Position numbers and translations under genes: made by a program. Below the pieces are notes generated by a model. The model was not told the DNA's origin. It ran no database searches and worked only from the letters and a program-made list of their open reading frames with translations. From Planctomycetota bacterium (lineage in GTDB: Bacteria; Planctomycetota; SZUA-567; H5-PLA8), in assembly GCA_035308565.1 (NCBI GenBank), contig DATGGK010000215.1, positions 5,867 to 69,866 on the forward strand: DNA of 64,000 nucleotides, given 5' to 3'. Below are positions 49,993-51,081 of this stretch, piece by piece (positions within the stretch are counted from its first letter, which is position 1; each line of letters opens with the position of its first letter).

Positions 49993-50604
49993 ATGGACAA
50001 GAACAACGCGCTCAAGGCGGTCGCCGGATTTATCGCCGCGGTCGCGGCCTATCTGTATTTTCAATACGGCGGTACGGTGCCGGTTGGGCCGAATGCCAAC
50101 GGCAACGGTGGCCCGAATGTGCCGGCGTTTCCGACTGATACCAATGAAACGCGGAATGCGCCTCCGCGAAACGATTCCGCGCGCGGCAATTCGCACGACA
50201 CCGAAAGTTCTTCCCGTTCCGCCAATGCTTCGCTTTACGATCTTGAAAAAGACGAAGGGCACGGACATACGCTGAAGAAGCACGTGGGCCGCACGGATCA
50301 GCAGTTGATCGAGCGCCTCGCAGAGGAGCGCATCAGCAGCGCCTCGACGTACAGCGACAAGGAAACGGCGGAACGCTGCGTGGGCATCGCGCTGGCGGAG
50401 AATCGGGAGCGCGTGCAAAGCTGGCTGCGCGGAACGGACAACACGCGGATGACGCTGGATTACAACGGCGACCCGGCGCATCCGATCGGTCGAACCGTGC
50501 ATCGCAATTCGACGCAATCCAAGCCGGTGCATCGCGCCAAGGTTGTGCTGGAGAAGGACGGGCGCGGCGGATTTTTTGTGCTCACGACGTATCCGGAAGA
50601 GTGA
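49993..50604 (+). CDS. Membrane-anchored protein with a C-terminal RNase A-like toxin domain (CdiA-CT Yersinia kristensenii type)
   Basis: N-terminal TM ALKAVAGFIAAVAAYLYF and a low-complexity linker. Then GHGHTLKKHVGRTDQQLIERL..ISSASTYSDKETAERCV..NRERVQSWL..GRTVHR..AKVVLEKDGRGGFFVLTTYPE, which matches my memory of proteins annotated as RNase A-like domain-containing. Confidence 0.65.
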   Translation: MDKNNALKAVAGFIAAVAAYLYFQYGGTVPVGPNANGNGGPNVPAFPTDTNETRNAPPRNDSARGNSHDTESSSRSANASLYDLEKDEGHGHTLKKHVGRTDQQLIERLAEERISSASTYSDKETAERCVGIALAENRERVQSWLRGTDNTRMTLDYNGDPAHPIGRTVHRNSTQSKPVHRAKVVLEKDGRGGFFVLTTYPEE

Positions 50605-50607
50605 ACG

Positions 50608-50742
50608 GTTCAAGATTCAAGATTCAAGGTTCAAGGGTTCAAGATTCAAGATTCAAGATTCAAGATTCAAGATTCAAGTTTCGGGATTCGAGATTCGAGG
50701 TTCGAGATTCGAGATTCGAGATTCAAGGTTTCAAGGTTTCAA
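50608..50742. repeat. Heptamer microsatellite (TTCAAGA/TTCGAGA), about 19 units
   Basis: ggttcaagattcaagattcaaggttcaag...gattcgagattcgagattcaaggtttcaaggtttc read directly. Fills the toxin-immunity spacer. Confidence 0.95.
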
Positions 50743-50763
50743 AGTGTCTGGCGCTTGAGTGTG

Positions 50764-51081
50764 ATGAAAATGAAACCATTTTCTCGCAAGGATTACCCGC
50801 AGCTTTCGGCGTTTGTGGGCGGGTATCTGCATCAGGATTACATCGACGACAGCGGCTCGCCGGCGGGGGCGCTGGACAAATTTATTGCGCAAGCAAATCC
50901 TGAACAGCGCCGCGCGCTGACGGCGGAGTTCGGCGCGTTTATGAACGCGATTGAGGCCGTGCCATTCGCGCAGGCTCAGGAATGGTGGACGCGCGAACTG
51001 GGTTCGGCGTGGCTGCCGGCGGATAAAAATGAATTGTTGGCCTTACAGCGGCGCTTGAGCCGGACCGATATTAAAGCGTAA
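50764..51081 (+). CDS. CdiI-type immunity protein-like (contact-dependent inhibition immunity family)
   Basis: YPQLSAFVGGYLHQDYIDD..ALDKFI..EQRRALTAEF resembles the F.GAYFHQDW family signature. Located directly downstream of the toxin-domain gene. The start could be GTG 50755, ATG 50764 or ATG 50770. Confidence 0.6.
   Translation: MKMKPFSRKDYPQLSAFVGGYLHQDYIDDSGSPAGALDKFIAQANPEQRRALTAEFGAFMNAIEAVPFAQAQEWWTRELGSAWLPADKNELLALQRRLSRTDIKA

Follow-up and report, generated by a model that had tools for sequence, protein, structure and literature searches.

The 64,000-nucleotide stretch of Planctomycetota DNA analysed here (contig DATGGK010000215.1 of assembly GCA_035308565.1, positions 5,867 to 69,866; hereafter the window) carries a gene for a stand-alone, export-type RNase A-like protein of 203 amino acids (aa). 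It is followed on the same strand by a gene for a predicted inhibitor of the family of CdiI-Ykris, the immunity protein of a contact-dependent growth inhibition (CDI) pair from Yersinia kristensenii. It is very probable that the two products form an enzyme-inhibitor pair of this molecular kind. The fuller explanation, in which the RNase is exported and stays anchored, the inhibitor remains in the cytoplasm, and RNA is degraded outside the cytoplasm for scavenging, is slightly favoured. The pair has the following parts; the RNase open reading frame (ORF) holds every peptide quoted in the original prediction made for this DNA.

49993..50604 (stop codon included), + strand: RNase A-like gene, stand-alone and exported-type, 203 aa; ORF and PF18431
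49999..50067, + strand: N-terminal hydrophobic helix, residues 3-25 (KAVAGFIAAVAAYLYFQY-GG); hydropathy and AlphaFold helix
50068..50238, + strand: low-complexity linker rich in Gly/Asn/Pro/Ser/Thr, residues 26-82 (~57 residues); predicted disordered
50239..50601, + strand: RNase A-like catalytic domain, residues 83-203; PF18431, 5e3e_B and model
50281-50283 (H97), 50314-50316 (R108), 50584-50586 (T198) and 50590-50592 (Y200), + strand: predicted active-site residues; alignment to 5e3e_B
50605..50769, no strand: intergenic spacer between the RNase and inhibitor genes, 165 nt; heptamer tandem array inside
50770..51081 (alternative starts 50755 and 50764), + strand: CdiI_2-family inhibitor gene; PF18593

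The Pfam family PF18431 (RNAse_A_bac) matches residues 91-201 over the whole profile (positions 1-113 of 113) at 103.2 bits (cut-off 27, E 2e-29), and is the only Pfam family found in the protein. A phmmer search of PDB sequences matches the protein to 5e3e_B, the nuclease domain of the Y. kristensenii CdiA-CT, with E 1.4e-15. In an AlphaFold model built from 38 homologs, residues 3-25 form a helix, residues 26-83 have low confidence (predicted local distance difference test score, pLDDT, ~50-55) and the domain at residues 84-203 has pLDDT >93. Foldseek ranks 5e3e_B first for this predicted domain (E 2.7e-12, template modelling (TM) score 0.92, root-mean-square deviation (rmsd) 1.5 A); the next match has E 1e-2.

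The catalytic residues can be placed by alignment. H97, R108, T198 and Y200 align with His175, Arg186, Thr276 and Tyr278 of the Y. kristensenii domain, as read from the phmmer alignment and the mutagenesis primers of PMC5435912; they are invariant in the 38 homologs and at least 97% conserved across 78 loci. In the Y. kristensenii domain, mutagenesis has shown that both RNase activity and growth inhibition depend on all four (Batot et al. 2017, PMC5435912). A conserved YDLxxDE extension lies at the N-terminal side of the catalytic domain. The 203-aa protein is a member of the bacterial RNase A-like family and, as judged from alignment and model, its predicted active site is intact.

The RNase N-terminus has a hydropathy of 2.0 across 15 residues starting at residue 9. 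Residues 1-128 contain no Cys and hence no lipobox. In the subclade to which the protein belongs (P0001-5, P0009, P0020, P0127-133), a hydrophobic run with a conserved Y-x-[YF]-x-x-[YH]-x-GG motif at its end takes the place of the lipobox. Since no consistent small-x-small cleavage site follows the run in these proteins, the helix is most likely an uncleaved Sec signal-anchor, which would leave the N-terminus inside and the RNase outside. The linker that comes next is 54% identical to that of the closest relative, with a ratio of nonsynonymous to synonymous substitution rates (dN/dS) of 0.33; in more distant relatives it is unalignable and varies in length.

The inhibitor ORF ends with the stop at 51081 and has three candidate starts: TTG at 50755 (108 aa), ATG at 50764 (105 aa) and ATG at 50770 (103 aa). 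Position 50770 is most likely the best choice, because the closest relatives are all 103 aa long with MK..F.. N-termini. The protein matches PF18593 (CdiI_2) at ~40.8 bits (cut-off 26.7, E 3.9e-10) over profile positions 2-53 of 91 only; all 30 downstream proteins tested from other loci also pass this profile. When the single inhibitor sequence is used in a phmmer search of PDB sequences, nothing relevant is returned. A word-indexed search with the inhibitor gave just six proteins; the family was therefore gathered from the ORFs downstream of RNase homologs. A profile of 30 such proteins from related loci matches 5e3e_A (CdiI-Ykris) with E 5.6e-7; 5e3e_A is the partner of the RNase 5e3e_B in the same crystal structure. 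The inhibitor model, which is built on a shallow six-sequence alignment, is all-helical with pLDDT 81, and 5e3e_A and 5e3e_C are its sole fold matches below E = 1 (TM score 0.65-0.76). Taken at the level of sequence and model, the downstream gene is predicted to encode an inhibitor of the CdiI-Ykris family. It should be cytoplasmic, as there is no hydrophobic segment in its N-terminal sequence.

The original prediction had named both families, and both assignments are borne out: that of the 203-aa protein by profile, sequence and predicted fold (PF18431, 5e3e_B), and that of the downstream gene by PF18593, the family profile match to 5e3e_A and the model. Each protein scores above its Pfam gathering score. 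The layout of N-terminal helix, Gly/Asn/Pro/Ser-rich linker and C-terminal domain that it described is supported by hydropathy and AlphaFold. The minimal module that it envisaged, self-exported and tethered to the membrane, agrees in essence with the architecture seen here, whose topology is predicted. Its length of 106 aa for the downstream product is replaced by 103 aa as the most likely value; no start yields 106 aa.

Homologs, gene order and selection

The closest relatives of the RNase are short proteins. All 120 closest homologs are 128-252 aa long and contain PF18431 only. When one genome per species was scanned, 382 loci came up; the 80 best belong to Acidobacteriota (~76), Planctomycetota (2) and Verrucomicrobiota (2). 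In none of the 85 loci examined does the stop-to-stop frame of the RNase exceed 523 codons, and its usual length is ~200. A lipobox is found by a rough motif screen in most of the 120 closest homologs and in most of the 85 loci.

Searched exhaustively with HMMER, 1.84 billion representatives of clusters at 50% identity yield 1,497 clusters at E <= 1e-3 and 389 at E <= 1e-10. Among the best 150 representatives, 42 have a lipobox, 78 have a Cys-less hydrophobic N-terminus, 23 have neither and 7 are fragments. None is longer than 536 aa; the 23 without a signal include a few Rhs- or LXG-like pieces of up to this length. In this RNase branch, the architecture that prevails among the closest relatives is the stand-alone exported one and not the tip of a giant effector. 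Against the narrower family NF041883 (RNase A-like domain-containing lipoprotein) the protein scores 81 bits (cut-off 200), with residues 66-202 aligned to profile positions 29-166 of 168; it is a relative and not a member of this family, because the score is below the cut-off and the lipobox Cys is absent.

Three further points of the original prediction can be judged. That such domains normally sit at the end of huge effectors fails for this branch, in which the 120 closest homologs and the 85 loci are uniformly short. The architecture is also neither new nor unusual; stand-alone lipoprotein homologs with immunity genes are already described in PMC5435912, and a model for such lipoproteins exists in NF041883. 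The absence of a delivery system holds at the Pfam level: when the ~35 other ORFs of the window were profiled with Pfam, together with the contig annotation, no TPS/CdiB, haemagglutinin repeats, Rhs/YD, VgrG, PAAR, LXG or MafB was found. Toxin/immunity arrays and recognised mobile-element domains are likewise absent from the profiled window ORFs. In public annotation the downstream protein is labelled "contact-dependent growth inhibition system immunity protein"; this misleads, as there is no CDI system in the window.

The inhibitor gene accompanies the RNase gene at every informative locus. Of the 85 loci, 81 have an ORF of the CdiI_2 family as the next gene on the same strand; the remaining four (L003, L006, L037, L055) are uninformative, with sequence that ends ~250 nt or less past the RNase stop, and the informative count is 81 of 81. 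The two genes overlap in most loci, including L004 and most of the acidobacterial ones. RNase and inhibitor identities co-vary (Spearman rho 0.75 over 3,003 pairs), a correlation that is confounded by phylogeny.

In the window, the genes are separated by an array of TTCAAGA/TTCGAGA heptamers at 50609-50742 (Tandem Repeats Finder period 7, 16.9 copies). There are eight GATTCAA units in the window and nine in two other assemblies of the locus, L001 (10617-10757) and L002 (1424-1564). In L005, a relative with 72% identity, the array is absent and the spacer is 4 nt long. Since the number of units varies among assemblies and the array is missing from L005, it is a recent, length-variable, lineage-specific insertion that uncouples genes which normally overlap and are translationally coupled.

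The pair is part of a four-gene block, which is completed by these features:

49513..49977, + strand: 4HBT/hotdog acyl-CoA thioesterase gene; PF03061 on source contigs, with weak YciA/hotdog NCBIfam matches
51173..54960, + strand: gene for a fused MFS/spermidine-synthase-like (SpeE-like) membrane protein; PF07690 and PF01564

The thioesterase gene ends 15 nt before the RNase gene starts. The SpeE-like protein is 1264 aa long as called on L001, its ORF is open from 51085 in the window, and it scores 142.8 bits against NF037959 (fused MFS/spermidine synthase; cut-off 40). The order 4HBT - RNase - CdiI - MFS/SpeE is kept at RNase identities of 72% (L005), 44% (L004), 41% (L007) and 40% (L006). 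The thioesterase gene is immediately upstream of the RNase gene in seven of seven Planctomycetota-type loci, with 71-89% identity. The SpeE-like gene is directly downstream in L001, L002, L004 and L007 (59-100% identity); in L005 it is 83% identical over the part covered. Outside the block, the flanks differ among Planctomycetota-type loci. Identities to the window in the two more distant loci are as follows:

L004: 4HBT 71%, RNase domain 61%, inhibitor 53%, SpeE-like 60.5%
L007: 4HBT 76%, RNase domain 52%, inhibitor 58%, SpeE-like 59%

The identity of the RNase domain (52-61%) is close to that of the SpeE-like flank (59-60%).

The block is tightly spaced in the Planctomycetota relatives as well: it occupies 49513-54960 in the window, 7487-12782 in L004 and 187-5477 in L007, with SpeE-like proteins of ~1,200-1,290 aa. 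Tight spacing of the four genes despite rearranged outer flanks suggests an operon, although one without obvious functional logic. A scan of 49300-51400 for sigma-70 promoters and intrinsic terminators gave nothing above shuffled expectation; operon structure is therefore deduced from spacing and synteny only.

Selection on the pair resembles that on its flank. The dN/dS values against L005 are:

4HBT: 0.11
RNase domain: 0.13
inhibitor: 0.23
linker: 0.33

Three independent assemblies (L001-L003, from ENA, JGI and Logan) show no nucleotide difference in the RNase gene, and the two of them that reach the inhibitor gene show none there either. From its linkage, conserved synteny, low dN/dS and identity across assemblies, it follows that the gene pair is old, vertically inherited and under purifying selection, and is not a shuffled polymorphic-toxin cassette.

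In 69 loci of Acidobacteriota, the RNase gene is preceded by a recurring gene in divergent orientation. The sole example that was profiled (L046, 3199-6342, - strand) encodes an AMP-binding - PP-binding - acyltransferase protein that is Aas-like. Clustering of flanking ORFs was noisy in GC-rich loci due to spurious overlapping ORFs, and only the Aas-like neighbour and a TPR protein were kept from it. The upstream neighbour in Planctomycetota is an acyl-CoA thioesterase and that in Acidobacteriota is Aas-like; both belong to acyl-thioester/lipid metabolism, which may be coincidence.

Possible role of the pair

The proposed mechanism begins with the hydrophobic N-terminus, which would take the RNase through Sec and then stay as a single membrane anchor. 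The RNase would hang on its flexible tether of ~57 residues at the periplasmic side of the cytoplasmic membrane. There it would act as a metal-independent endoribonuclease of RNase A fold, in which His97 would be the general base, Arg108 would serve the transition state and Thr198/Tyr200 would donate the proton. The inhibitor has no signal sequence and would remain in the cytoplasm; by homology to the CdiA-CT/CdiI-Ykris crystal, it would cover the active site of RNase molecules that fold before export or re-enter the cell. The cell's own tRNA and rRNA would thereby be protected, in keeping with barnase/barstar logic. Outside the cytoplasm, the RNase would degrade RNA and so scavenge nucleotides or phosphate. 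For this role, the most probable of those considered, in which nucleotide or phosphate would be drawn from environmental RNA that reaches the periplasm, the chances appear evenly balanced; scavenging has been proposed for the lipoprotein RNase A homologs of Bacillus (Batot et al. 2017, PMC5435912).

Several points weigh against this explanation. The exported stand-alone branch has no experimentally tested member. In a diderm, an RNase on the cytoplasmic membrane meets environmental RNA only after that RNA has crossed the outer membrane. Retention of the inhibitor at every informative locus is equally expected if kin cells delivered the RNase to each other. The inhibitor also diverges faster (mean pairwise identity 40%, compared with 60% for the RNase), as immunity proteins of conflict systems do. 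The N-terminus may be a cleavable signal peptide instead of a signal-anchor, in which case the RNase would be a soluble periplasmic or secreted protein. Finally, the heptamer insertion uncouples the RNase and inhibitor genes in this genome, which may affect the balance of their expression.

Another reading starts from the homology of the two proteins to a CDI toxin/immunity pair of proven function: the RNase may be a toxin for inter-bacterial competition that has no dedicated secretion system. It would travel in vesicles, by outer-membrane exchange, or after release by linker proteolysis or lysis, and CdiI would protect kin. The SitA lipoprotein toxins of Myxococcus are reportedly transferred by outer-membrane exchange, and most relatives of the RNase are lipoproteins of diderms, for which the outer membrane or vesicles are conceivable destinations. 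An immunity gene kept in 81 of 81 loci, and an immunity protein that diverges faster than the toxin, are in line with this. A further parallel is Ribocin, an RNase A-fold protein with a Sec signal only, which reaches the cytoplasm of another cell by an unknown route (PMC13189344). In contrast, the dN/dS of the RNase domain (0.13) and of the immunity gene (0.23) is at the level of the housekeeping flank, the chromosomal position is kept in two phyla, the assemblies show no variation, and the window has neither toxin/immunity arrays nor recognised mobile-element domains. A helix anchor in the cytoplasmic membrane should also block transfer; Batot et al. argue likewise for the Bacillus lipoproteins (PMC5435912). 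Purifying selection and conserved synteny argue against a putative function in inter-bacterial killing; competition by such routes is unlikely. A broader form of the idea takes in all exported RNase/CdiI pairs, which are found in at least 382 species genomes, mostly of Acidobacteriota, with the signal-anchored version in Planctomycetota. These would be inter-cellular weapons or kin-recognition devices that need no secretion machine; the RNase, held by a lipid or a helix with a long flexible linker, would be passed on by vesicles, membrane exchange or linker cleavage. Cytoplasmic entry into neighbours would explain why a cytoplasmic inhibitor is never lost; if this holds, a polymorphic-toxin domain would have a novel and minimal means of delivery in two phyla that have received little study. 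It is considered distinctly improbable.

The family is concentrated in Acidobacteriota and Planctomycetota of soil and peat, bacteria that encounter grazers, and this is compatible with an anti-eukaryote effector. Released inside a protist or nematode after ingestion, the RNase would attack host RNA while the inhibitor guards the producer. Ribocin provides the precedent: it is a stand-alone RNase A-fold protein that carries a Sec signal, the structure nearest to it is CdiA-CT-Ykris, and its His/Thr/Tyr are at equivalent positions (PMC13189344). The same paper gives it no annotated domain and ~15% identity to CdiA-CT-Ykris, which places it on a different branch; the part available mentions no bacterial immunity protein for Ribocin and states that bacterial ribosomes are spared. 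An obligatory inhibitor in the present family implies activity on bacterial RNA, and an anti-grazer role has only a slim chance of being correct. The gene order of toxin then inhibitor, with overlapping genes in relatives, resembles toxin-antitoxin operons. An intracellular toxin-antitoxin or abortive-infection module would require that the N-terminus is not an export signal and that the RNase acts in the producer when a labile inhibitor is lost. It is highly improbable, since ~80% of cluster representatives have a lipobox or a signal-like N-terminus, which would be senseless for a cytoplasmic toxin, PADLOC gives no match, and the position is a conserved one in the core genome without phage or mobile context. 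The original prediction had also considered an "orphan" or "displaced" cassette, that is, a cdiA-CT/cdiI or Rhs/LXG tip left over from recombination and not expressed itself; the two families are indeed those of a CDI toxin/immunity pair, and neither CdiA nor CdiB is present in the window. This is effectively refuted. The RNase gene starts with an ATG of its own and encodes a conserved export signal and linker; there is no VENN or pre-toxin remnant in the sequence, and the upstream frame is closed five codons before the ATG (the stop-to-stop frame is 208 codons). The same complete architecture is found in 85 of 85 loci, in a conserved, vertically inherited housekeeping block under purifying selection.

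The pair thus behaves as a conserved exported enzyme with its inhibitor, and the preferred explanation is still that of an anchored RNase which degrades RNA outside the cytoplasm. The class is very common. The locus itself is ordinary and will not surprise a specialist; the size and uniformity of the family should ease an experimental decision between scavenging and competition, and the answer would bear on hundreds of soil species.

Repeats and other genes of the window

The remaining genes of the window are varied. The profiled ORFs include a Ser/Thr kinase-FGE protein, PRAI, AccD, hybrid histidine kinases, an NHL-repeat protein, LepA, an HD-domain protein, SDR, CHAD, an Opp transporter, an epimerase, FAD synthetase, a GH9-CBM3 cellulase, DeoC and a sigma factor. 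At 9084-16370 there is a complete cluster of the chemotaxis type (CheR, CheW, a methyl-accepting chemotaxis protein, a CheA-like protein and CheB), and large hybrid histidine kinases flank it at 3914-8290 and 16475-18526. In PADLOC, neither the RNase nor the inhibitor has a match at E <= 0.01; a weak 'mad2' match on the SpeE-like protein was taken as generic methyltransferase similarity.

Two genes upstream of the RNase gene, a 796-aa protein is encoded at 46951-49341. It has no Pfam domain, and its N-terminus is weakly UshA-like (NF049981, 58.7 bits, cut-off 140). Its true start is probably further downstream, because the first ~40 codons consist of heptamer repeats. A functional link between the RNase and this UshA-like protein was dropped; the gene does not stay with the block (it is absent from L004) and the score is below the cut-off.

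There are ~20 period-7 arrays in the window and nearly all of them are intergenic. With varied units and 4-17 copies, they are found at 15191-15230, 16362-16450, 18982-19039, 19431-19469, 23005-23067, 30248-30279, 35440-35533, 36519-36564, 46961-47066, 50609-50742 (the spacer array of the RNase/inhibitor pair) and 55973-56012. A regulatory part for the spacer array in the module was rejected, as similar arrays are scattered through the window and the array is absent in relatives. The scattered arrays appear to be a genome-wide habit reminiscent of the short tandemly repeated repetitive (STRR) sequences of cyanobacteria; to our knowledge, there is no description of such heptamer arrays in Planctomycetota.

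Some of the arrays are paired (35440-35474 with 35502-35533, 16362-16396 with 16420-16450, and 23005-23028 with 23031-23067). In the array at 35440-35533, which lies between convergent genes, the units TAGGAGA and ATCTCCT are reverse complements; the two halves could form a hairpin of ~30 bp, possibly a bidirectional terminator made of repeats.

One inverted repeat is located between the inhibitor and SpeE-like genes:

51095..51147, no strand: perfect 20-nt inverted repeat GGTGCAGGCTTCCAGCCTGC ... GCAGGCTGGAAGCCTGCACC with a 13-nt loop

It was not called as a terminator in the scan described above and has no T-run; it is possibly a hairpin or an element like the repetitive extragenic palindromic (REP) sequences. 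Related to it are 27-nt units AATGCAGGCGGGCCGCCTGCACCACAA, of which there are four copies at 51859-51969; these lie within the SpeE-like ORF and encode NAGGPPAPQ repeats. A 32-nt tandem repeat begins right after the SpeE-like stop (54960-55086, 3.9 copies, 98% match), with a GGAGC...GCTCC palindrome in each unit, and a 65-nt repeat (44928-45071, 2.2 copies) precedes the FAD synthetase gene; both resemble intergenic hairpin arrays. A 12-nt repeat, GGGCGAGGCGCG (42917-43005, 7.4 copies, 92% match), is found inside the ORF 42246-43163, which has no Pfam match.

Comparison with known systems

The closest characterised relative is the CdiA-CT/CdiI pair of Y. kristensenii ATCC 33638 (5E3E, PMC5435912). 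Its RNase domain is 31% identical to that of the window and is matched by the model with a TM score of 0.92 and an rmsd of 1.5 A; the His, Arg, Thr and Tyr residues are shared, the inhibitors belong to the same CdiI family, and the toxin gene precedes the immunity gene in both. The Y. kristensenii domain is the C-terminal end (~115 residues) of a very large CdiA filament that CdiB exports; a VENN motif and a cytoplasm-entry domain precede it. Unlike CdiA, the protein described here has only 203 aa, with its own predicted signal-anchor and a disordered linker, and it has no entry domain or receptor-binding region. The window encodes no large CdiA with a two-partner secretion (TPS) domain, filamentous haemagglutinin (FHA) repeats and VENN, and no CdiB (Omp85/TpsB); the locus is not a CDI system.

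Barnase and barstar of Bacillus amyloliquefaciens are a Sec-exported RNase and a small cytoplasmic protein that plugs its active site and protects the producer. The logic is the same as that proposed for the present pair, without homology: the fold of barnase is different, barstar is unrelated to CdiI_2, and barnase is released and not tethered.

Ribocin (RbcN, PA14_21120) of Pseudomonas aeruginosa resembles the RNase in being a stand-alone RNase A-fold protein whose only export signal is a Sec signal peptide (PMC13189344). It needs its His, Thr and Tyr for activity and is independent of known secretion systems, according to the same paper. Other features set it apart from the present RNase: Ribocin has no Pfam domain and specifically cuts helix 69 of eukaryotic rRNA, not bacterial ribosomes (PMC13189344). 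Stand-alone ORFs in the wider superfamily have been mentioned by Mushegian et al. (PMC7297114).

The nearest counterparts in architecture are the stand-alone lipoprotein RNase A homologs of the Bacillus cereus/B. anthracis group, which are accompanied by probable immunity genes (Batot et al. 2017, Discussion of PMC5435912). In the view of these authors, the lipid anchor should keep the protein from being transferred, and the low variation between isolates is an argument against competition (PMC5435912). The features of these stand-alone pairs recur in the window: a short protein that has a signal for export or anchoring and ends in an RNase A-like domain, an inhibitor gene next to it, and low sequence variation. 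The order of parts is also alike, with export signal, membrane anchor, linker and RNase A-like domain followed by the inhibitor gene. The differences are a Cys-less transmembrane helix in place of a lipid-modified Cys, a diderm host in which the RNase would face the periplasm and not the medium, and the 4HBT/SpeE-like block. NF041883 is presumed here to correspond to this Bacillus lipoprotein group. The architecture is already known; what is new is the helix anchor that replaces the lipid anchor, the Planctomycetota host and the conserved four-gene block.

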